DNA of 64,000 nucleotides from Methanobacteriota archaeon (lineage in GTDB: Archaea > Thermoplasmatota > Thermoplasmata > SG8-5 > JAGLSY01): NCBI GenBank assembly GCA_020696385.1, contig JAEHCQ010000008.1:1-64000 (forward strand), in the 5' to 3' direction. The notes beneath the pieces are model-generated. The model worked only from the letters and a program-made list of their open reading frames with translations. It was not told where the DNA came from and searched no databases. The translations under genes were made by a program, and so were the position numbers. Of this stretch, positions 47,743-59,448 are shown one piece after another. Within the stretch, counting starts at the first letter, position 1; each line of letters opens with the position of its first letter.

Positions 47743-50700
47743 TCACTCGACCTCATCTTCGAGTCCAGTCTGCTCCGGCTCTGAATCCATTGATTCAGCC
47801 GGAGCGGGTTCTTCTGCTTCAGGTTCTTCCACAGGTTCTTCCATTGGTTCTTCCATTGGTTCCTCGGTGGTTCCTTCAGCTACCGGCTCATCCTTCTTGC
47901 CCTTTCCCTTCATTATAAGAAGGAGAGCAATTACACCGACCACGACGAGTATGAGGATGATGTATAGCCAGTTATTGGCGGGATCATCTTCATCATCAGC
48001 ATCATCATCGGGATCGTCATCCACATCTTCCACGATGTCATCCAGAATCAGATCCGTGGTAGAATCATCTGCTGTGTAGCCGTCATTCCACTCATCTGGA
48101 GCTCCGTCATTATCAGCATCCACGGAGGCCGCGGGGTCGGTCGGGAATGCATCACCATTGTCGCCTGTTCCGTCACCATCTGTATCGGTATCTTCCGTGG
48201 AATCTGATGGGAAGGCATCGGCATTGTCTCCAACACCATCACCGTCTGTGTCTGCGGTCTCATTGGCATCTGTTGGGAAAGCATCATCAGCATCTGGCAC
48301 GCCGTCATCATCTGTATCGGTAGGAACTACCTCGGCCCCAACCGTGTCATCCAGAGGATCCAGATCATCAACATCCAGAACTCCATCGCCATCATCATCA
48401 GGGTCCTCATTGTTGCCAATACCATCACCGTCTGTGTCCACGGTCTCATCAGGATCCGTCGGGAAGGCATCGTCTACATCTGGCACGCCATCTGCATCGT
48501 CATCGGTATCCGCATTGTCACCGATGCCATCATCATCGGTGTCTGTGTCTTCAGTTGGATCTGTTGGGAAATCATCCTCGGAATCAACCACGCCATCACC
48601 GTCATCATCACCATCTATGCCATCATGGTCACCATCGCCATCCGTGTCCAGTAAGAACAAGAGTGTGGCATTATTGTAGGCGATTCCACCATTTCCATCA
48701 CTCACACTGACACTGACATTGTAATAGCCTGCATCTGTTTCACCGGGATTCCCCGTGAACTCGCCAGTGACTGGATCGATATACATCCAGGATGATCCTG
48801 ATGTCAAGGTCCATGTTAGAGTATCATTTGTATCAGCATCAGTGGCTGTGAAGTTCATCGAGAAATTACTGCCTGTGTTAAAGGTTGATTCTGAGAAGCC
48901 ATTTGTCATGACTGGCAGGTCATTGACCCCAGTTATCGTGATGGTGACCGTGGCATTGTCAAATCCGCCATTGCCATCATGGATCATGTAGGTAAAGGTG
49001 TCAATCATACTCTCGCCAACACCCAGTCCCTGATATGTTGCATTATCATTCGTTAGGTAAGTGAATATGCCATCTGGATTTACGACCATATTGATACCAT
49101 TGGCAGTAACTGGATCATTGCCAACTACCTGATATATATCGGATGTATCGGGGTCATTGTCATTGGCCAGAACACCAGAGCCTCCTGCCACCAGAACAGT
49201 ATCCTCATCGATCGTGTATGCGTCGTCGACCGCTATTGGCATGTCATTGACACTTATCACTGTGATATTGACAGTGGCTGTATCTGTTCTCCCATTGCCA
49301 TCAGATATTGTGTAGTTGAAGAAGTCTGCTCCGAACCAATTTGCATCTGGCTCATAGGTCACATTCTTGCCAGCATCTATTATTACGACTGCTCCATTGA
49401 CACCCTGTGTCACACTTATTATTGTTAGATCATCACCATCTGCGTCGGTATCGTTGGCCAATACATCTATCGTATTGACACCACTGTCCTCAGTTGTCAT
49501 GTATGTGTCATTCGCCGCGATAGGTGGTGCATTGATGGTAACAATGCTCGTAACATCATTATTGGTCATGTCTGGGTCTGTAGTAGTGGATACAGAAGTT
49601 CCAGCCAGGTCGAATGTACCACTTTCATTGGCAGTTAAGTTGATCTGCAGACTGGCTGTTTCTCCATTTATCAAGGACACTATTGCCCATGACAGGCCAC
49701 CTTGCCACAAGATCGTGTCAGATGTTTGATTATTTCCCAGATATATCACATCATTCCCACTTCCCATTAAAGTGACATTGATATTCGCTGCATTGTTTGG
49801 GCCATCATTGGTGATGTTCGCGTAATATGTCACCGGATCACCAACATTTACAAAAGATGAAGCTAACTCCACAGTTAAATTAAGATCTGCTGATGGAGTT
49901 GCGGGAGTTGGGCCAACTGCCTGAAGGAATGGGTATGTATTTGTCTCATAGATGCCCCAGATAGTTGTGAAGTCCCAGTTCGTGAAGGTTGGCTGGAGCA
50001 TCATTTCTGAAGTTGTCTGGTCGATTCCACCAGCACTGGTTGCCCAGCCGGATGTTTCAGTGTCCCAATGACAGTCCGTGATGGTGCTAGCCCAATTGAC
50101 CCCTGCAAATCCGCCGGTCTCAGTATTACCAGTTACCAGACCAGTTGAGTAAGCATTCGTCAATGTGCTGGCTCCAGTGTGATTTCCAACAAAGCCACCG
50201 ACCCTGTAATTTCCAGTAACATCACTGTGGCTGTAGCTGTCGATTATATCACCATCTGCTGCCATATGTCCATTATGACCAACAAAGCCACCGACATTGT
50301 ATCCGGAAGCTGTCACGGTACCATCTGAATAACTTCTCTCAATGAGTCCTGTGTTACGACCGACAAAGCCGCCGAGGGTTCCACTTCCAATGACATCACC
50401 ATGCGCACTGGAGTTCTGGATAACTCCCAGACCCAGATTCTCACCAGCAAGACCGCCTACCCATGAATGTAAATCGGTCACTCCAGTATCTCCATAAGCA
50501 GAGCACCAGACTATTGTGCCTTCATTTCTGCCAACAAGCCCACCGATATAATTTCCAGCACCAATTACGGTACCATAAGCAGAGCTGTTAGTCACCATTG
50601 CACCAGGATTGATATACGCTATGAGGCCACCAACATTGAACTTACCTCCACTGACATTTCCATATGACTCACAGAAGGAAACTGTGGAAGATGACAATAA

Positions 50701-53700
50701 TCCGATAAGACCACCAGTGTTAAAATAATTCTCGCTTGTCCCTGCCATATTGTAAACATCACCATAACTTGTAGAATTGGTAACTGGAGCATCACATAAT
50801 CCAATTAGACCACCAGTATTGTTCTTGTAACCGATCACAGCCCCATTGAATTCACTGCTCTCAACAGATCCAGCTACAAGCCATCCGATAAGACCACCAA
50901 CGTTATCGCCAGTTCCATTGACAAGACCGTGTGATTCTGAGCCTATAACGGTTCCTTGTGAATATCCGACAAGGCCACCAGTATTTCCAACCCCTGTTGC
51001 ATTGGCATAGGAGAAACACGCATTCACAGTTCCGCCGTCCAGTGTTCCGATAAGGCCGCCGACATCCGTTGTGCCCGATCCAGATACGTTCTTGAAAGAT
51101 GTGCAGTTATTGATTGAGCCTGAACTGTCGTAACCGACTATTCCTCCGACATAATCTATTCCTGTGACATCAGCATACGATGTGCTGCCATTGACATATC
51201 CATATCCGGAGGAGCCGTCATTGTAGCCAACGATGCCACCAACGCAGACATCGGTTGAGCTCACAACCCCATAGTTGATGGAATCATGTACTGATCCATA
51301 GCTCTGGCCTACAATACCGCCAGCCGAATTATCTCCCTGTACTGGGCCGTAATTGATGGAGTCTGCGACAATTCCATAATTGTCACCCACGATACCACCG
51401 ATGCCCATTGTCCCCCCGAGGGTGCAGGTCACATTACCATGGTTCTCTACAAGGGTGATATTTCCATCATTGTAACCTGAGAAACCACCAATATAATTGC
51501 TCGAGCCTGAAACCGTCCCAAAGGACTGGCTATCGTAGATGAAACCATAATTGCGCGAACTGAATCCACCGATCCAACCGGTACCTGTGGTATTTCCAAA
51601 GGCCTGGCAGTCGATTATCTGTCCAGTGCCATAGTTCATGCATACGAAACCACCGTTCTCATTCCCACCAGTGACATCTCCAGATGCTGAACAATTGATG
51701 ATGGTCCCGCTGTTCTCGGCAATGAAGCCAGCCATTCCAGGTCTGGTTCCACCGTCAACGATTCCTGATGCCCAGGAATCACGTATGATACAATTATTCT
51801 GTAGCAGGCCAGCAAATCCTCCGGACAGGCTTCCGCCTAAAGAGAGAGCTATGTCTCCGGTCGTGGTGCAATTTGCCACAGTACCGCTGCTCATCATTCT
51901 TCCGACCACTCCTCCGGTATTGTCCCTGCCAGTTACATCTCCGGTATTGTGGCAATTGGAGATGCTAGCACTGGTGCTGACACCCACGATACCACCACAG
52001 ACATCACTGGAGGAATGGATGTCACCAGAATTATTGCTCCAGGATACATGGCCAATGCTCAGTTCTCCCACGACACCAGCAACATTGTTATCCGATCCTG
52101 ATATTATGCCAAAATTAGTGCAATCAGTTACATTGCCCTCATCCATCCTGCCGACAATTCCTCCTACAGAACCCCATCCAGTTACATTTCCATATGATGA
52201 ACAATTCTCAACTTCGCCATTAACGGCAAATCCTACAATTCCTCCAACAAGATAGAGTGGAGAATATACATCACCATAAGAAACTGAATTCATAATTATG
52301 CTATCAGCCTCTGTTGTGATTCCTACAATTCCTCCGATCCAGCCTGTATTGTTACTACTTACATTACCATAGGATATGCAATTATTAATTGTTCCATGCC
52401 CTAATTCACCAACGATCCCACCATTCATAGAGCCATAGCCAGTTATTTTACCATATGAGACACAGTTTTCTATGATACCTCCGCCGCGGTTATCTCCTGC
52501 AATTCCTCCAACACTCCCCCAATCTGTATCTGTTACATTTACATTCGCGGTACAGTTTTTGACTCCACCACTACTGATAAGGCCGACAATTCCACCACCC
52601 CATAAGCTACTACTGGTCACTGAACCATTAGAATGGCAATTATCTATAACAGAGTTACTCACGCACTGGCCAGCAACAATTCCTACACTTTGATATCCCG
52701 AAATATTAGCTCCCATAAGGTTAAGGTCCCCAACATAAGCCCCCCAGATTATGCCAAATAGACCATTGAAAAATTCATTCTGGCGGTCTATGAATATATA
52801 ATTGATATTGTATCCACCCCCATCCAGGCTCCCAGAGAAGGGGATTGTATTATTACCAACTGGCATGAATCCTTTTCCCCCATTACTGGCATTGGTCCCC
52901 CACATCTGGGTTGCTTCACTCGTATCGCTCACATCAATATCACTGACCACTTCATAATCTGCTGCCAGGTCCATCTGCATGAGTTGAAGTTCGTGTGAAT
53001 TGGTAATCTTGGTATCGTATTCCCATCTGAGGAAGGGTCGTGTATCGTTCTCCCACATTATCCAGTCATTGGTGAAATCCCATCCAGCTCCTGTGTATGT
53101 TGCCTCGGTAAGCGCCTGGGCGGTCGTGATGCCGGTTCCACCATCACTGGCTGCCTGGCCACTGGTATCAGTGTCCCAGAAGCAATTGATAATGTTGGCA
53201 CCATTATTGTTATCATCTGCAACAAGACCGCCAACAGGTGTGGATGTGGCAGTTATCTGGCCAGTGCTGTAACAATTTATAACATTAATTACGGCGCCAG
53301 TATTCGATCCTATCAAACCACCGACATATTCATCACCAGTGACAGAACCAGTGCTGTAACAGGCCCCTATGTTCCCATCAAGACTGGAACCAACAAGACC
53401 GCCAATAAAATCGCCACCTGCCGAGCCAGTACCAATGATCTCGCAATTTGCATAGCAGTCATAAACAGCCGCCATGGTCCATCCGGTTATACCACCGACA
53501 TACTGCTCTCCCCTGAGTGTGCCAGTGACATAGCAATCCATGAACATGCCCTCGCTAGCTCCGGCAATTCCAGCTATCCAGCCACCACCTGTTATGTTCA
53601 CATTCACAAGGCCGAGGCTCTGAACATCAAATGTGCTATCAGTGAACCCGAACAGGCTGTTGTAATTGTCACTGGGCCGGTTGATATAAAGATTGGTGAT

Positions 53701-55032
53701 CGTGAATCCCTGGCCATCAAAGGTCCCCTCGAACTTGGCCGTATTTATACCGATCCTATCGAATCCTCCTACCGAGGCAGGACTTGTCCCCCACATACTG
53801 GCAGGGTCTACAAGGTCGTCCATCACAATATCATTCATCAAAGTGTAATCCGCAGCTAGTGAGGCGGCGTTCATCTTCATCATCTGTAGCTGATGAGTAT
53901 TTCTTATTTCAGTATCCCACTCCATCCTTAGGAAGGGTCTTGTATAACCATCGACCATCCACCAGATCGTTCCAAAGTCCCAGCCACCATAACTTGCCTG
54001 AGTCATTGCCTGGGCGGTTGTAAGCCCAGTCTCTGGTCCTGCTGATGTTCCCAATCCAGACGTGTCAAGGTCCCAGTAGCAATTGGTCACTGTGCCGCTT
54101 GGTAAGTTACCTATAAAGCCACCACTGGTCCCACCAGTCGCACTGCCAGTGCTGTAGCAGTTCTCGATGGTCGTGCTACCTGTTTCCTGCATACTACCCA
54201 CGAATCCACCAACAAAATCGAACACAGCCTCGGCATCTCCCAACGCATATGAGTCATATATATCGCCAAAGTTGGAGCCAGCGAACCCGCCAACATAGGA
54301 TGAGGAGCTGTATACGCTTCCTGTGGCATAGCATCGGCGAATTTCACCAGTAACCTGATTAAAGCCAACAAGGCCGCCATTTGCCTGACTGCTTCCAATG
54401 ACATCCGCCTGGCTGTAGGAATCAAATATCTGGTTATGGTTATTGCCAACCAGACCTCCTACATAACCATCCGTGCCTACAACATTTCCGCTAGAGGAGG
54501 ATGACGTTATTGGACCAGCGGATGATTGGCCTACTAGACCACCTACACTTTGGGCTCCGAAAACCTCTCCAGAGACCATGCAGTTGTCTATAGCCCCATC
54601 ATTCTTGATACCCACAAGACCTCCTACCCAGTCATCTCCGGTTATGTCAACATCTACAAGATTGAGATTCCAAACGAGGGATCCAGTCGTCATGATGGAT
54701 ATCAATCCAACAAAATTCTCTGTTGGCCTGTTCATGTAAAGACCTGATATCGTGTAATTCTGACCATTGAAAGTACCTGCAAAGCCTCCTATGGTATCAA
54801 AACCCTGGCCCCCATTCCAGTTGACGGTTTCCGAGGCATCGATGTCATTCATCAGAATATGATCCTGGTCCCTGTGGCCATTGATATCCTGCAGGTCAGC
54901 AAGTGTGAATATCTGGTAAAGGGCTCTACCCTCATTCCCATCATCCTTACCCTGAACATCGTTCCCTATCATGATGATAAAACTACTGGCTATAAGCATG
55001 GCGCATATCAATATAGTGGATATTTTCCTCAT
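47743..55032 (-). CDS. Giant (2429 aa) cell-surface protein: GLUG-type repeats, DUF11, cadherin/Big_9-like domains, TSP3-like Ca-binding repeats, TM
   Basis: Dozens of VGG(L/I)VG repeats; ADL...TN.GP..A; N..P.A.ND...ED; DTDGDG.GDN.DAFP.D repeats; C-terminal TM. Confidence 0.88.
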   Translation of the reverse strand: MRKISTILICAMLIASSFIIMIGNDVQGKDDGNEGRALYQIFTLADLQDINGHRDQDHILMNDIDASETVNWNGGQGFDTIGGFAGTFNGQNYTISGLYMNRPTENFVGLISIMTTGSLVWNLNLVDVDITGDDWVGGLVGIKNDGAIDNCMVSGEVFGAQSVGGLVGQSSAGPITSSSSSGNVVGTDGYVGGLVGNNHNQIFDSYSQADVIGSSQANGGLVGFNQVTGEIRRCYATGSVYSSSSYVGGFAGSNFGDIYDSYALGDAEAVFDFVGGFVGSMQETGSTTIENCYSTGSATGGTSGGFIGNLPSGTVTNCYWDLDTSGLGTSAGPETGLTTAQAMTQASYGGWDFGTIWWMVDGYTRPFLRMEWDTEIRNTHQLQMMKMNAASLAADYTLMNDIVMDDLVDPASMWGTSPASVGGFDRIGINTAKFEGTFDGQGFTITNLYINRPSDNYNSLFGFTDSTFDVQSLGLVNVNITGGGWIAGIAGASEGMFMDCYVTGTLRGEQYVGGITGWTMAAVYDCYANCEIIGTGSAGGDFIGGLVGSSLDGNIGACYSTGSVTGDEYVGGLIGSNTGAVINVINCYSTGQITATSTPVGGLVADDNNNGANIINCFWDTDTSGQAASDGGTGITTAQALTEATYTGAGWDFTNDWIMWENDTRPFLRWEYDTKITNSHELQLMQMDLAADYEVVSDIDVSDTSEATQMWGTNASNGGKGFMPVGNNTIPFSGSLDGGGYNINYIFIDRQNEFFNGLFGIIWGAYVGDLNLMGANISGYQSVGIVAGQCVSNSVIDNCHSNGSVTSSSLWGGGIVGLISSGGVKNCTANVNVTDTDWGSVGGIAGDNRGGGIIENCVSYGKITGYGSMNGGIVGELGHGTINNCISYGNVSSNNTGWIGGIVGITTEADSIIMNSVSYGDVYSPLYLVGGIVGFAVNGEVENCSSYGNVTGWGSVGGIVGRMDEGNVTDCTNFGIISGSDNNVAGVVGELSIGHVSWSNNSGDIHSSSDVCGGIVGVSTSASISNCHNTGDVTGRDNTGGVVGRMMSSGTVANCTTTGDIALSLGGSLSGGFAGLLQNNCIIRDSWASGIVDGGTRPGMAGFIAENSGTIINCSASGDVTGGNENGGFVCMNYGTGQIIDCQAFGNTTGTGWIGGFSSRNYGFIYDSQSFGTVSGSSNYIGGFSGYNDGNITLVENHGNVTCTLGGTMGIGGIVGDNYGIVADSINYGPVQGDNSAGGIVGQSYGSVHDSINYGVVSSTDVCVGGIVGYNDGSSGYGYVNGSTSYADVTGIDYVGGIVGYDSSGSINNCTSFKNVSGSGTTDVGGLIGTLDGGTVNACFSYANATGVGNTGGLVGYSQGTVIGSESHGLVNGTGDNVGGLIGWLVAGSVESSEFNGAVIGYKNNTGGLIGLCDAPVTNSTSYGDVYNMAGTSENYFNTGGLIGLLSSSTVSFCESYGNVSGGKFNVGGLIAYINPGAMVTNSSAYGTVIGAGNYIGGLVGRNEGTIVWCSAYGDTGVTDLHSWVGGLAGENLGLGVIQNSSAHGDVIGSGTLGGFVGRNTGLIERSYSDGTVTASGYNVGGFVGHNGHMAADGDIIDSYSHSDVTGNYRVGGFVGNHTGASTLTNAYSTGLVTGNTETGGFAGVNWASTITDCHWDTETSGWATSAGGIDQTTSEMMLQPTFTNWDFTTIWGIYETNTYPFLQAVGPTPATPSADLNLTVELASSFVNVGDPVTYYANITNDGPNNAANINVTLMGSGNDVIYLGNNQTSDTILWQGGLSWAIVSLINGETASLQINLTANESGTFDLAGTSVSTTTDPDMTNNDVTSIVTINAPPIAANDTYMTTEDSGVNTIDVLANDTDADGDDLTIISVTQGVNGAVVIIDAGKNVTYEPDANWFGADFFNYTISDGNGRTDTATVNITVISVNDMPIAVDDAYTIDEDTVLVAGGSGVLANDNDPDTSDIYQVVGNDPVTANGINMVVNPDGIFTYLTNDNATYQGLGVGESMIDTFTYMIHDGNGGFDNATVTITITGVNDLPVMTNGFSESTFNTGSNFSMNFTATDADTNDTLTWTLTSGSSWMYIDPVTGEFTGNPGETDAGYYNVSVSVSDGNGGIAYNNATLLFLLDTDGDGDHDGIDGDDDGDGVVDSEDDFPTDPTEDTDTDDDGIGDNADTDDDADGVPDVDDAFPTDPDETVDTDGDGIGNNEDPDDDGDGVLDVDDLDPLDDTVGAEVVPTDTDDDGVPDADDAFPTDANETADTDGDGVGDNADAFPSDSTEDTDTDGDGTGDNGDAFPTDPAASVDADNDGAPDEWNDGYTADDSTTDLILDDIVEDVDDDPDDDADDEDDPANNWLYIILILVVVGVIALLLIMKGKGKKDEPVAEGTTEEPMEEPMEEPVEEPEAEEPAPAESMDSEPEQTGLEDEVE

Positions 55033-55116
55033 ATAAATCCCTCAATTTATCCTATGGGGAAGTATATCCTATTAATGGCATTAATAAATATGTATAATAT
55101 GTTCGCTCGGGCTTAT

Positions 55117-55157
55117 TTTACTTGAATCTTATAGTCTCAACATTGAACTCATCATCC
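55117..55157 (-). repeat. Diverged duplicate of the last 13 codons of the RHH-proteasome-alpha gene
   Basis: 36/41 identity to 55254-55294; encodes DDEFNVETIRFK* versus DKEFNVETIRFK*. Confidence 0.85.
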
Positions 55158-55254
55158 GGAAGCCTTTTCTTTTACGCTCATTGTGCTGGCTCGGGCTCCA
55201 AAAGAACAAGTATTCCATTGCAAAAGAAAAATCGCCCTCACCTGCTCATTCGCT

Positions 55255-55983
55255 TTACTTAAATCTTATAGTTTCGACATTGAACTCTTTATCCTTGCCA
55301 AGAATTGTCGGAATGAGCTTGCCCGCATCCCGGATCATCATCTTCTTGTACTTGCCAGCCAGTGTCTTCATATGAGCCTCCATGCCATCCCCAATGACGG
55401 CGGCTGTGAACTCTGTCGCAGTTCCACTTGGATCAATAACAAATAGCCTTGGATGGTCGAAGTTCGTCGCAATGAGAAGACCCACTCCCAGTGGCCTTAC
55501 ATCCTTTTTTATTGTGTGCGACCAATAAATCTCTTTTATGGTGAAAAGCATATCATCCACATTCTTGAAATCCTTGTTTCGAAGCTGGTTCAATATCATG
55601 GAGCCATCCATTGCCAGACCTGCTGTTCCTATCATGACCTTATCGGATAATCTGTGGATCTTCATCGGAGACATCATTAGTGAATTGCCAGCCTTGGCAG
55701 ATATGTCCTCAGATGCCATTAAGATACCATCTGTGCATATTATTCCCATGACACTGGCTCCGCGCTTCACACTTTCCCTGGCGTACTCGATCTGATGTAT
55801 GCGGCCTTCGGGCGAGAAGAAATTATCAGTGTCATAGCCCTTGGATATCGGGCCTATGGTATTCAGGAATTGAACGATCGCCGCTCTGGCTAGCTCTGCC
55901 TTATTTCCGAACATCCCGCTCTTTATCACCATGTCCAGATAGTTATCTACCTCATCTGGAATTACAACCCTTAGCTCTGACAT
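55255..55983 (-). CDS. Ribbon-helix-helix domain fused to divergent proteasome alpha-subunit domain
   Basis: aa 1-42 LRVVIPDEVDNYLDMVIKSGMFGNKAELARAAI..FL (RHH pattern), then GYD...FSPEGRIHQIEYA, RPLGV.LL and LF.IDPSG (alpha-subunit signatures); AGGGGT RBS before ATG 55983. Confidence 0.82.
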   Translation of the reverse strand: MSELRVVIPDEVDNYLDMVIKSGMFGNKAELARAAIVQFLNTIGPISKGYDTDNFFSPEGRIHQIEYARESVKRGASVMGIICTDGILMASEDISAKAGNSLMMSPMKIHRLSDKVMIGTAGLAMDGSMILNQLRNKDFKNVDDMLFTIKEIYWSHTIKKDVRPLGVGLLIATNFDHPRLFVIDPSGTATEFTAAVIGDGMEAHMKTLAGKYKKMMIRDAGKLIPTILGKDKEFNVETIRFK

Positions 55984-56137
55984 CTTCAATACCCCTTGTT
56001 GATTTATACATATCATCCGCCAAAACGGACTTTTAACGTATGATAACAGTATGTTAGATGTATTATATAAGGATTTGTGCCTAAAATTGAAAAAATGAGA
56101 TAATGTTTTGGATATCGAACTTGTATAGTAGTGACCA

Positions 56138-56353
56138 TTACCCGGATATGATAGCGCCAACCCTCTGTATCATATTGGGATACAGATCCGCGGGTACGTT
56201 TTCAGGTCCTATCGCCTCCGCCACCATATACCGGGCACATTGAGTACTATCCCCCATACAATAATTCTTCTTGTATAACTGTGCCATCCCAGGTTTATCG
56301 GCCATCCTGTCATTGAAAAATGGGCAGGCTTCCAACATCTTACATTCTGACAT
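56138..56353 (-). CDS. Small 4-Cys protein (C-x5-CPFF...YC...CARY...DLYPN), copy 1
   Basis: 71 aa from ATG 56353 with GGGTGA RBS; paralog of 57593-57826. Confidence 0.8.
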   Translation of the reverse strand: MSECKMLEACPFFNDRMADKPGMAQLYKKNYCMGDSTQCARYMVAEAIGPENVPADLYPNMIQRVGAIISG

Positions 56354-56489
56354 AATATTCACCCTCGCTCTTCCTATGATACATAATTGATTTTTAGATA
56401 TAAATAAATTCCTAATTGTGCATAAACTCACACAAACCGAAATAATGAAGACACGAAAATTTATCAGCATTTACTGTATAACGGGGTGT

Positions 56490-57506
56490 ATGACGGGTGA
56501 AGGAACGACAAATGCGAAGGAAACCGTATTCGCCAAAATTATCAAGATAAAAAATGATCTGGTATTCGTAGGCAGTTTCCTCTTTGATAACTATCGCACA
56601 GTAGTGATGAAGATGGGATATGGAGGAGAGGTGGAATGGCTGCGATTGTTTGGAGAAGGGGAGAAGGATCATGAGGGACAGAATGTAGCTGCCCTGGGCG
56701 ATGAATTACTGGTATGTGGCTGCTGCGATGGAATAGCAGACCCGAAGGGAGGAAGTGGTTGGAAAGCCTATCTGATGAAGCTGGATGCGAATGGAGAAAA
56801 GGTCTGGGAAAAGATATTCGATTGGGGAACCAGCGCCTGTGCTTATTCTGTAGTGACCAATAAAGAATATATCTATTTATTTGGAGAGGTAAGACAAGAA
56901 TCGGGGAATACTGATGTATTCCTTCTGAAGCTGGATGGACAGGGCGATGTGATCTGGGAAAAGCAATTCAATTGCGGTCTCAATGTCATGGCCAGCGGCC
57001 TGGTCATTGTGAATGATATGATGATCATAGGTGGAAGCCACAAGACCCCGGAAGGTTGGAAGTTCAAACACTGGAAGGTGGATGAGAATGGCGAGATAAT
57101 ATGGGAGAAATATTTTGATGATCTGTGTATAATGCACATGGGCACCCTGAAAGATGATATCCTGCTGGCTGGCCAGAAAGGAGTGGAGACCTTCCTCATG
57201 AAAATGAGCCAGAATGGAGAAATGCTGTGGGGCGGACTATTTGGCATTGGCATAGCCACTTCGGTCAAAGCCTCAGGGGAGAATATCCTGATGGCTGGTG
57301 ATGCTGTTGTTGATGGGAAGAATCGACCATCCTTCTTCATAGTGGATGGACAAGGTGATATCAGGGTCCAAAGAATATTCGATAGAGATGGATACTTCGA
57401 GGCGGTCATTGGAATAGATAAAGGCCATGTACTGAGTCTTCAAAAACCAAAGCCAGACAATCATGCGGTGATAGTTGTTCTGGATGATAAGGGAGATCCT
57501 CTTTAG
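56490..57506 (+). CDS. Beta-propeller repeat protein
   Basis: Repeated (L/M)KLD..G..(V/I)WEK blades; ATG 56490 has a GGGGTG RBS. Confidence 0.75.
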   Translation: MTGEGTTNAKETVFAKIIKIKNDLVFVGSFLFDNYRTVVMKMGYGGEVEWLRLFGEGEKDHEGQNVAALGDELLVCGCCDGIADPKGGSGWKAYLMKLDANGEKVWEKIFDWGTSACAYSVVTNKEYIYLFGEVRQESGNTDVFLLKLDGQGDVIWEKQFNCGLNVMASGLVIVNDMMIIGGSHKTPEGWKFKHWKVDENGEIIWEKYFDDLCIMHMGTLKDDILLAGQKGVETFLMKMSQNGEMLWGGLFGIGIATSVKASGENILMAGDAVVDGKNRPSFFIVDGQGDIRVQRIFDRDGYFEAVIGIDKGHVLSLQKPKPDNHAVIVVLDDKGDPL

Positions 57507-57592: not shown

Positions 57593-57826
57593 TTATTTCG
57601 TGGAGATCAGCTCCTTGGCTCTATTGATCATATTTGGATAAAGATCTGATGGAGCATTTTCGAGTCCAAGTGCCTTGATCACCATGTATCTGGCACAGAT
57701 ATTATAACCACCATTACAGTATTTCTTCTTGTACATTACCGCGATGCCTGGCCTGGCCACCAGCTCATCCGTGAAAAAGGGGCATTTTTCTGTGATCTCA
57801 CACTCAATTATCCTATGTTCAGACAT
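57593..57826 (-). CDS. Small 4-Cys protein, copy 2
   Basis: CEITEKCPFF...YC...CARYMV...DLYPNM. Confidence 0.8.
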   Translation of the reverse strand: MSEHRIIECEITEKCPFFTDELVARPGIAVMYKKKYCNGGYNICARYMVIKALGLENAPSDLYPNMINRAKELISTK

Positions 57827-58158: not shown

Positions 58159-59448
58159 ATGCCGGCAAAAGTAATACTTGGTACGCAGTGGGGCGATGAA
58201 GGCAAAGGAAAGATCACGGATCTTACAGCCGATGAGGCGGAGATGGTTGTGCGTTTCCAGGGAGGGAATAATGCTGGCCACACAATAGTTATCGATGGCC
58301 AGACCTTCAAATTGCACCTCGTGCCATCCGGAATTCTCAGAAAGGATACTATCTCGGTCGTGGGGAATGGAGTTGTTCTGGACCCAGCAGCTTTCCTCAA
58401 GGAACTGGACCAACTGAAAGAGGGAAATGTCGAGATGGGACAGCTTAAAATTTCAGATAGATTACATGTCATTATGCCGTATCACCGCACGATCGACGGC
58501 CTTGAAGAGGCGGCCAAAGGAAATCTGGCTGCCGGAACCACCAGGCGTGGCATCGGCCCCTGTTATTCGGACAAGACCGCTCGCTTCGGCTTGCGAATGT
58601 GCGATATGATGGATCCCGAAGCTTTCATGCATAAACTGAAAGTCGCATATCCACTGAAAGCCGGCTATATCAAAGCACTGGGTGGGGAAATCGAGCAGAC
58701 CATGGATGAGATATTCGAGGAATACATGACTCTCGCAGACAGGCTGAGGCCGTATGTTTGCGACGTGTCGGTTCTGATAAACGACGCTCTGGACCAGGGC
58801 AAGAATGTGCTCTTCGAGGGAGCGCAGGGAACCCATCTGGATATCGATCATGGTGTTTACCCGTATGGGACATCCTCATCCACGATCACCGGTGGATGTC
58901 TAATCGGGACTGGAGTCGGCCCAAAGCGACTTGACAAGGTTATTGGAATTGTCAAGGCATACACCAGCCGTGTAGGCACTGGCCCCTTCCCCACTGAGCT
59001 TTTCGATGATATTGGAGAGCATATCGCTGACAAAGGCGGCGAGTTTGGAACCACCACTGGCCGAAAAAGACGTGTCGGATGGCTGGACCTCGTCATGGTG
59101 GAATATGCAGTTCGTGTCAATGGGCTGGACAGTCTCGTGATAACCAAGTCCGACGTACTGGCCGGCATGGACGAGATCAAGATCGCCACACATTACAAGC
59201 TGGATGGTAAGGACATCCATCATTTCCCTGCCAGTATGGCGCAGGTGGAGAAATGTGTTCCTCAATACCACACGATGGCTGGCTGGCCTGACCTGAAAAA
59301 GGAAGAATGGGATGCCATCGCGAGTAAAGGACGCGATGGGTTACCAGAAGGCCTGGCTGCTTACATCACTTTCATAGAAGCGAACCTGAAAGTTCCTGTT
59401 GAGATCGTATCTTATGGACCTGGACGAGAAGAGAACATCTACCTGTAA
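58159..59448 (+). CDS. purA: Adenylosuccinate synthetase
   Basis: QWGDEGKGK, GGNNAGHT, EGAQG and GTTTGRKRR. Confidence 0.98.
   Translation: MPAKVILGTQWGDEGKGKITDLTADEAEMVVRFQGGNNAGHTIVIDGQTFKLHLVPSGILRKDTISVVGNGVVLDPAAFLKELDQLKEGNVEMGQLKISDRLHVIMPYHRTIDGLEEAAKGNLAAGTTRRGIGPCYSDKTARFGLRMCDMMDPEAFMHKLKVAYPLKAGYIKALGGEIEQTMDEIFEEYMTLADRLRPYVCDVSVLINDALDQGKNVLFEGAQGTHLDIDHGVYPYGTSSSTITGGCLIGTGVGPKRLDKVIGIVKAYTSRVGTGPFPTELFDDIGEHIADKGGEFGTTTGRKRRVGWLDLVMVEYAVRVNGLDSLVITKSDVLAGMDEIKIATHYKLDGKDIHHFPASMAQVEKCVPQYHTMAGWPDLKKEEWDAIASKGRDGLPEGLAAYITFIEANLKVPVEIVSYGPGREENIYL

Follow-up and report, generated by a model that had tools for sequence, protein, structure and literature searches.

An archaeal proteasome alpha-type paralog with a ribbon-helix-helix-like N-terminal domain and an operator-like array in its own promoter

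Introduction

Ribbon-helix-helix (RHH) domains bind DNA as dimers, and RHH repressors typically bind cooperatively to phased repeats that lie one helical turn apart. In PutA and NikR an N-terminal RHH domain is fused to a functional or sensor domain, and both proteins are autogenous repressors. In the proteasome, the N-termini of the alpha subunits form the gate of the 20S particle in heptameric rings. To our knowledge, little has been described of how archaeal proteasome genes are regulated. Here we describe a gene in which these two kinds of module are joined, so that an RHH-like domain precedes the alpha-type signature of a proteasome subunit. The gene was found in a 64,000-nucleotide stretch of an archaeal genome of the Thermoplasmatota (assembly GCA_020696385.1, contig JAEHCQ010000008.1, positions 1 to 64,000), which we refer to as the window; coordinates given without a contig are positions in it.

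Several described systems bear on this gene. In the passages of PMC6696185 that deal with the alpha ring, the H0 helix and a cluster of Tyr, Asp, Pro and Tyr contact neighboring subunits at the gate; Tyr8, Asp9, Pro17 and Tyr26 are described as stabilizing the open gate and Lys66 as anchoring activators. CdrS of Haloferax volcanii is a stand-alone RHH regulator, and the part of PMC8406309 concerned with its targets lists chromatin immunoprecipitation sequencing (ChIP-seq) sites upstream of psmB, panA and cdc48d. Within the PAC2 family, the relevant sections of PMC3605417 and PMC6992696 present PbaB as a proteasome activator and PbaA as pairing with an unannotated partner protein. A survey of proteasome homologs (Fuchs et al. 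2021, PMC8665760) describes in its Results a choice of candidates by conserved active-site residues, and the terms ribbon, RHH, DNA-binding, Thermoplasmat and Bathyarchae do not occur in it; its supplementary cluster map might list the family. More generally, no description of an RHH-proteasome alpha fusion was found in the literature searched, and the supplements of the surveyed papers might list such a family.

Results

The fusion gene and its distribution

The coding sequence (P0001; 55255..55983, minus strand) runs from an ATG at 55983 to a stop at 55255 and specifies 242 amino acids, for which full-length relatives were found. An initial annotation, made from the sequence alone, had described it as an RHH domain fused to an alpha subunit, and the strings on which that description relied (LRVVIP, SGMFGNKAELARAAI, GYD...FSPEGRIHQIEYA, RPLGVGLL and LFVIDPSG) are all found in the 242-residue protein. 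Because the fusion would lose its head if the true start lay downstream of the RHH segment, the position of the start is of some consequence. A Shine-Dalgarno-like AGGGG (55992..55996, minus strand) lies 9-13 nt 5' of the ATG at 55983, the relatives carry GGAGG or GGTGG at the equivalent position, and in all of them the start is aligned at M-x-E-[LIV]-R. A longer open reading frame (ORF) with a TTG at 56160, taken from a mechanical ORF list, was rejected as the gene start for these reasons. Across the first 45 codons there are 25 synonymous and 3 non-synonymous codon differences from locus L008, and 22 and 4, respectively, from L010. As judged from such comparisons of sequence, the N-terminal segment is translated and is under strong purifying selection, and the gene does begin ahead of the RHH segment. 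For 55100-56300 no sequencing run, of RNA or otherwise, was listed, which bears on expression in neither direction.

The fusion is widespread. A word-indexed search returned 74 proteins at E <= 0.001 among 642 candidates; clusters P0002-P0045 match over 98-100% of the query with 44-96% identity to the fusion, and further groups of 236-245 and 266-278 residues show 33-43% identity. When 41 related genomes were inspected, 20 were found to carry the fusion, recognized by a match from residue 1 or 2, and in the remaining 21 the match begins at about residue 43-54 and represents their canonical alpha. With a profile of the N-terminal 45 residues, a search of 1.84 billion proteins yielded 86 representatives at E <= 0.001. 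Ten long representatives from this search were checked and nine have both alpha Pfam families behind the domain; three of ten short ones that were checked (55-74 residues) have weak RHH_1 or ParD matches. Finally, a scan of species-representative genomes yielded 25 loci with the fusion, and the titles of these loci name Thermoplasmata, Methanomassiliicoccales, 'Methanobacteriota', Aciduliprofundum and metagenome-assembled genomes of Bathyarchaeota/Bathyarchaeia. In their sources the proteins are called 'hypothetical protein', 'peptidase' or 'proteasome alpha subunit'. The fusion is conserved across two archaeal phyla and is not peculiar to this assembly; its recurrence is far above chance and the original observation is confirmed.

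Three proteasome-family genes are present in the genome to which the window belongs (G000; 2.28 Mb, 94% complete). A canonical alpha is located on contig C22 (208 bits) and a beta on C44 (204 bits), while the fusion scores 80 bits and is 31-33% identical to the genome's own alpha and 20% identical to its beta. Canonical proteasome genes are also kept in four other fusion-bearing genomes, two of them of the Bathyarchaeia type. The fusion is an additional alpha-type paralog and has not replaced the canonical alpha. The initial annotation had remarked that no beta subunit or canonical psmA adjoins the gene and had proposed a repurposed paralog; the location of both canonical genes on other contigs bears out the first statement and agrees with the second. 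In a quick tree, all 31 fusion bodies fall on one side of a branch and 15 canonical alphas on the other, with a support of 92, not starred, in the Shimodaira-Hasegawa-like approximate likelihood ratio test (SH-aLRT), and the fusion branches are longer than those of the canonical alphas. P0100, P0107, P0118 and P0139, in which a motif filter did not find the YD...FSPxGR string, were left out of this tree.

The N-terminal domain

The RHH-like domain comprises residues 1-45 (55849..55983, minus strand), so that the RHH assignment of the initial annotation stands and its length of 42 residues is corrected to about 45. The domain is laid out as a strand (residues 3-8), a helix (10-21/22), a loop G23-x3-N27-K28 and a second helix (28-43). 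M1, E3, R5, P9, D13, G23, K28, A29, E30, R33 and A35 are invariant in the family, and positions 4, 6 and 8 are hydrophobic, alternating with the invariant E3 and R5 as in a DNA-reading ribbon. A profile built from alignment A4 (27 rows, stand-alone relatives included) was used to search the PDB, and ParD proteins ranked first (3kxe, E 1.3e-3; 7b22, E 1.9e-3; 8c24, E 0.049), followed by antidotes of the CopG/Arc/MetJ family (E 0.13-0.39). Among 11 N-termini of the family, Pfam detected RHH_1 in two (best E 5.7e-6) and ParD_antitoxin in three, and the NCBIfam ParD-family antitoxin model TIGR02606 covers residues 6-36 with E 0.053. The closest relatives in sequence are uncharacterized stand-alone proteins of 48-75 residues.

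Modeling leads to the same fold. An AlphaFold2 (AF2) model of the 48 N-terminal residues has a mean predicted local distance difference test (pLDDT) score of 88.8, with residues 1-9 extended and helices at 10-21 and 28-47, and thus contains the succession of strand, helix A, G-x-x-x-[NS]-K loop and helix B. When this model was submitted to Foldseek, the top eight matches were all RHH chains of ParD or PrpA, with template modeling (TM) scores of 0.76-0.85 and a root-mean-square deviation (rmsd) of 1.0-1.7 A, and the regulator Reg576 ranked ninth. The N-terminus does therefore model as an RHH domain. A homodimer prediction for the full-length protein (alignment A1, two copies), which was run without controls, scored 0.14 against a mark of 0.42 and weighs neither for nor against a dimer. 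Taken together, the support for an RHH-like N-terminal fold is good but not conclusive.

The alpha-type body

A conserved linker, GPISKG (residues 44-49; 55837..55854, minus strand; alignments A1 and A3), leads from the RHH domain to the YD motif. The alpha N-terminal signature and H0 helix follow at residues 50-70 (55774..55836, minus strand), where Pfam Proteasome_A_N (PF10584) matches with 33.4 bits (cut-off 27.7; E 3.6e-8), and the proteasome-fold body, which is of the alpha type, short and divergent, occupies residues 72-224 (55312..55770, minus strand; PF00227, 79.8 bits, cut-off 22.4). Both alpha features named in the initial annotation, the N-terminal signature and the shortened, divergent body, are therefore recovered. 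The columns of the YD...FSPxGR..QxEYA signature are invariant or nearly so across the fusion family, and the same is true of Y50, D51, P58 and Y67, the equivalents of Tyr8, Asp9, Pro17 and Tyr26. K107 aligns with K66 of the genome's own alpha; this position is G, C, Q, R or E in many other members of the family.

The archaeal alpha models of NCBIfam score far under their cut-offs (NF003075, 112.3 vs 219 bits; the equivalog TIGR03633, 106.3 vs 287.35 bits), and the beta model, with 42.7 bits, scores below both. The best PDB matches by sequence are archaeal and eukaryotic alpha subunits, with E values from 1.7e-24 (3h4p) to 1e-19, and none of these extends N-terminal of residue 43 of the fusion. 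A full-length AF2 model, based on 25 family members, has a pLDDT of 84. Its body is of the alpha type, with pLDDT mostly 87-96 except at residues 91-110, where values dip to about 71, and in Foldseek the model is matched best by alpha chains (E about 1e-17, TM 0.65-0.69). Set against the genome's own alpha, the body of the fusion is missing the C-terminal helix as well as a loop, about 9 residues long, that follows helix H1. A long form of 274-281 residues, of the Bathyarchaeia type, has a complete alpha body that includes the C-terminal helix.

It was of interest to compare the constraint on the parts of the fusion with that on the canonical alpha, and this was done over identical genome pairs. 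Between the window's genome and G007 the canonical alphas are 76.3% identical, and the corresponding values for the fusion are 82.2% for the RHH domain, 77.8% for the H0 part and 42.0% for the rest of the body. With G010 the values, in the same order, are 76.3%, 75.6%, 74.1% and 42.6%, and with G014 they are 75.0%, 84.4%, 74.1% and 43.2%. The first 72 residues, which contain the RHH domain and then the H0 part, are thus under strong constraint. Since the body shows 42-43% identity where the canonical alpha shows 75-76%, it appears to be free of the full constraints of a ring subunit that touches its neighbors, the beta subunits and activators.

A phased array in the promoter

Every family gene that was inspected is preceded by TAC(A/G)T boxes with an exact period of 11 bp, the last of which is followed by 4 bp and then by an inverted copy. 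In the window as in the relatives, the array abuts the 3' side of a TATA-like box and stops short of the Shine-Dalgarno site. Here the TATA-like box TTATATAA is located at 56063..56070 (all coordinates in this paragraph are on the minus strand) and the operator-like array at 56016..56062. The array contains four direct half-sites, TACAT (56058-56062), TACTG (56047-56051), TACGT (56036-56040) and TCCGT (56025-56029), and the last of these forms the inverted repeat TCCG-N6-CGGA with an inverted arm at 56016-56020.

The array tracks the fusion gene. We counted occurrences, within 120 nt upstream, of either the palindrome T[AC]C[AG]T-N4-A[CT]G[GT]A or an 11-bp direct pair. An array or palindrome was present at 24 of 26 distinct family loci, compared with 6 of 1739 upstream regions of ORFs in the window's own genome, and the convincing ones among these six are the fusion gene itself and one other. 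A three-box pattern gave 22 matches in 12 of the 41 genomes, all 12 of which bear the fusion, and 12 of the matches lie directly upstream of the fusion gene; the 21 genomes that lack the fusion gave none. A reversed three-box pattern, used as a control, gave 11 scattered matches, 7 of them in the 21 fusion-less genomes. In four genomes of the Bathyarchaeia type, ATCCAT-N4-ATGGA occurs five times, with three occurrences at the fusion promoter, and its control does not occur. The array accompanies the fusion gene through changing neighborhoods and across two phyla, with the reservation that the related genomes are not independent. A cooperative RHH repressor would use boxes of this kind, one helical turn apart and covering the DNA from the TATA box to the transcription start, and we infer that the protein encoded by the fusion gene is the binder. 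The initial annotation had guessed at a DNA-binding regulator, and the array lends indirect support to this guess, with DNA binding itself remaining a prediction.

Similar arrays were also seen at second sites. The fullest, with five direct boxes at 11 bp and an inverted one, is outside the window (G000:C46:161789-161850, plus strand), 65-130 nt before an ORF of 184 codons (C46:161917-162471). It is shared by three genomes of the genus, and the orthologs of the ORF in genus g7 are without it. The 184-residue protein has no Pfam or NCBIfam family, and a match in the Atlas to clusters resembling TIGR02265/DUF2378 is merely a lead. A three-box, 11-bp array also lies between a gene for a small Cys-rich protein and a pheS-like gene, upstream of a TATA-like box, at L045 (G002:C11:139377) and L046 (G003:C199:2008), and a two-box version is present at G000:C22:29307; the pheS-like protein has a winged-helix N-terminus and a class II core. 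At L050 (G010:C134) and L052 (G013:C19), 3-5 boxes with inverted copies follow the gene for a secreted protein with a PKD domain and lie about 600 nt before gyrB, where there is no ORF of at least 60 residues in the expected direction. No Rfam family was found at the second sites, and no coherent regulon emerged from them. In addition, the psmB promoters of G000 (about C44:1590-1620) and G002 have TACAT boxes after the TATA-like box at spacings of 8 and 6 bp. Neither G001 nor G003 has these boxes, which we did not treat as an operator.

A PAC2 gene in the same operon in one family

In the family that we designate f4, the next gene on the same strand after the fusion encodes a PAC2-family protein (PF09754, E 2e-43) in 11 of 11 fusion-bearing genomes. 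The NCBIfam name for this partner is 'proteasome assembly chaperone family'. At the five loci where the ORF ends were read, the fusion and PAC2 genes are separated by anything from an overlap of a few nt to a gap of about 12 nt. The partner ends in ...VMYG, an HbYX-like tail, and is a third, lineage-specific PAC2 paralog whose members are at least 59% identical to one another. This third paralog is found only in the 11 f4 genomes and in four genomes of the window's genus (g1, in family f1). Outside f4 the fusion gene stands alone and its neighbors vary.

The initial annotation had suggested that the protein might sense proteasome assembly or activators bearing HbYX motifs. The operon lends support to a link with assembly, in one family. 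Sensing of HbYX activators through the canonical pocket is not supported, because the equivalent of Lys66 is not conserved in the family.

Discussion

What the protein may do

We propose, with moderate confidence, that the product of the fusion gene is a DNA-binding protein which controls its own gene and in which the alpha fold serves for assembly or for binding a partner; DNA binding, repression and contact with the proteasome are all predicted. RHH dimers would bind the phased TAC(A/G)T boxes, one per helical turn, ending in the inverted pair. Since these boxes have the TATA-like box on one side and the protein's own start codon on the other, binding there would be expected to repress the fusion gene and, in family f4, the co-transcribed PAC2 paralog as well. 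The alpha-type body, with its H0 helix and its Tyr/Asp/Pro/Tyr cluster, would provide subunit contacts for cooperative assembly on the array, and it may in addition bind the canonical alpha or the dedicated PAC2 paralog, an interaction that could release the protein from DNA. Its ties to the proteasome system, as read from sequence comparison, are the PAC2 operon and the retention of H0 and the gate cluster.

A number of observations weigh against this proposal, some of them concerning the head of the protein. Every sequence match of the N-terminus to an RHH family is weak and the window's own 45-residue N-terminus, taken alone, matches no Pfam family. The Foldseek E-values of the 48-residue model are also weak (0.38-2.8 for ranks 1-8, 0.38-3.6 when rank 9 is included), which may be attributed to the shortness of the query. 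With respect to the body, its fast evolution speaks, as far as sequence can tell, against complete contacts within the ring and with beta; the spacing from YD to Pro is one residue below the canonical value; and K107, the Lys66 equivalent, is kept here and lost in family f4, the very family that bears the PAC2 operon. A twofold RHH dimer does not fit a sevenfold ring in any simple way. Some other factor could be what binds the array. In the window's genome no such array was found ahead of psmA, of psmB or of any of the three PAC2 genes, nor was an 11-bp phased array present in 12 psmB and 8 psmA regions of relatives, taken upstream of the called starts, some of which are uncertain, with one region cut short. 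A shared operator on the core proteasome genes was therefore dropped, and control of these genes through such an operator is not indicated. Finally, the third PAC2 paralog is unlinked to the fusion in the window's own genus (G000:C11:322441-323184), and five fusion-bearing genomes (G004, G006, G008, G033 and G040) are without it and have two general paralogs only.

Several of these points would be accommodated if the protein were a plain transcription factor, with the alpha body serving only for oligomerization or ligand sensing, no contact with the proteasome, and the PAC2 operon as just another regulated target. The low identity of the body when compared with the canonical alpha (42-43% vs 75-76%), the longer branches, the absence of the loop and the C-terminal helix from the short form, and the failure to conserve the Lys66 equivalent are all as expected for a body that has left the ring. 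Outside family f4 the fusion gene is alone among changing neighbors, and the promoter array suits an autoregulator of any kind. However, the H0 helix and the Tyr/Asp/Pro/Tyr cluster, which the ring passages of PMC6696185 describe as contacting neighbors, are the most conserved features after the RHH domain; a dedicated PAC2 paralog with an HbYX-like tail is in the operon in all 11 f4 genomes; and the long form of the Bathyarchaeia type retains a complete alpha body. We regard this explanation as possible, if somewhat unlikely.

At the opposite extreme, the protein would be a structural component of the 20S particle, an alternative alpha subunit whose N-terminal domain would sit on the gate as a plug or cap, or act as a docking module, and would not bind DNA, the repeats belonging to some other regulator. 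This explanation would account for the placement of the domain, which is attached at the very position of the gate tail, with six residues between it and the YD motif, and it is compatible with the conserved gate cluster, the alpha fold of the model and the PAC2 chaperone gene that adjoins the fusion in family f4. Yet the closest solved relatives of the domain are DNA-binding RHH antitoxins, its invariant Arg and Glu lie on the outward face of the ribbon, and the nearly genome-unique phased repeats track the fusion gene across two phyla. The body is, moreover, under much weaker constraint than a canonical ring subunit and scores 106 bits against an equivalog cut-off of 287 for the NCBIfam alpha model. 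A purely structural role is, in our view, quite unlikely. We judge it less likely again, and indeed very improbable, that the inverted repeat acts not as a DNA operator but at the RNA level, folding in the 5' leader into a hairpin that occludes the ribosome-binding site, for although the 3' arm ATGGA of the Bathyarchaeia type overlaps the GGAGG site and some arm changes are compensatory (TCCG..CGGA in the window's genus, TCCAT..ATGGA in L019), the arms are uncompensated (TACAT...ACGTA) in L008, L011, L013, L014 and L018, and a hairpin would leave unexplained the 2-5 upstream direct repeats with their exact 11-bp period from the TATA-like box as well as the arrays at second sites far from any start codon.

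If the autoregulator proposed above does contact the proteasome, a more specific scheme may be entertained, in which the protein is a feedback sensor of proteasome assembly. When free it would repress its own gene and, in some lineages, PAC2; when captured by assemblies of the alpha-ring type with the canonical alpha, or by the PAC2 paralog, it would leave the DNA. We regard this scheme as doubtful. A bolder variant would have a proteasome-like ring tethered to specific DNA sites. Were the feedback scheme to hold, this would be the first case of a proteasome core subunit made into a transcription factor, and the protein would be an archaeal counterpart, in logic, to the feedback of the eukaryotic proteasome through Rpn4.

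If the alpha body still makes ring contacts, there is a structural puzzle, that of twofold RHH dimers on a sevenfold ring. If it makes none, the family would be a clear instance of a transcription factor whose effector domain was recruited from a proteasome subunit. In either event a protein that seems to be half repressor and half core subunit, and that is co-transcribed with PAC2 in one family, offers a concrete and testable entry to the regulation of the archaeal proteasome, with a short and defined predicted operator, a small protein and known prospective partners (alpha, beta and PAC2).

Neighboring genes in the window

Directly downstream of the fusion gene, at 47743-55032 (minus strand), is a gene for a predicted surface protein of 2429 residues, with many repeats of the G-G-[LIF]-[VI]-G type, Asp-rich repeats that resemble calcium-binding ones and a C-terminal membrane anchor. 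Two further genomes of the genus have genes for related giants (cluster c7) after the fusion gene. On the other side are two small paralogous Cys-containing proteins (56138-56470 and 57593-57826, both on the minus strand), which share CPFF...PG...YKK.YC.G....CARYMV...P.DLYPNMI. Neither has a Pfam family, and the one at 56138-56470, which alone was also scanned against NCBIfam, had no match there. Between them, at 56418-57506, a protein of 362 residues resembles a beta-propeller and has a weak match to the SBBP repeat. An adenylosuccinate synthetase gene, purA-like and named by eye from its start MPAKVILGTQWGDEGKGK, lies at 58159-59448 (plus strand). In 8 of the 15 loci that were compared, representing two families, a purA-like gene lies no more than a few kb from the fusion, and this proximity probably reflects conserved local gene order rather than function.

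Comparison with known systems

The nearest known relative of the body is the archaeal alpha subunit PsmA (3h4p, 1pma, 6he5, 1j2p), with which it shares the alpha signature, the proteasome fold and the Tyr/Asp/Pro/Tyr cluster. The fusion differs in having 45 extra N-terminal residues, RHH-like, at the position of the gate tail, in a spacing of YD to Pro that is smaller by one residue, and in being a shortened, additional paralog that falls below the equivalog cut-offs and evolves several times faster. The head, in turn, resembles ParD and the CopG/Arc/MetJ domains (7b22, 3kxe, 8c24, 7ycv) in its strand-helix-loop-helix arrangement, with profile matches that run from the strand to helix B and an rmsd of 1.0-1.7 A in the model, but it has neither a toxin partner nor the C-terminal tail of an antitoxin and is joined to a proteasome subunit instead.

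As an archaeal RHH transcription factor linked to proteasome genes, CdrS invites comparison, but it is a small stand-alone protein encoded next to ftsZ2. The RHH gene by an FtsZ-like gene in the window's own genome (on G000:C11) matches the N-terminal domain of the fusion weakly (E 0.0028), and for this reason the domain was rejected as a CdrS-like ortholog. At that place (L130, G000:C11:182714-182830, minus strand) a tandem-RHH protein of 142 residues is encoded upstream of the FtsZ-like gene, on the same strand, in an arrangement that resembles the haloarchaeal cdrS/cdrL-ftsZ2 locus. With PbaA, PbaB and the PAC2 family at large, the family f4 partner has in common its PF09754 domain and its HbYX-like M-Y-G end; it differs in being a lineage-specific third paralog, encoded outside the window and, in the window's genome, on another contig.

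In architecture the closest parallels are PutA and NikR, in which an N-terminal RHH is likewise followed by a large domain that does not bind DNA and whose engagement elsewhere controls occupancy of the operator. The second domain of the fusion is a proteasome alpha paralog, and no homology to these proteins is claimed beyond the RHH fold. A folded domain of the DNA-binding type at the gate position of the 20S particle falls outside any described family of proteasomes or proteasome homologs that we found. What appears to be new here is a known type of alpha subunit that has acquired a conserved head of the DNA-binding type and what looks like an operator array of its own.

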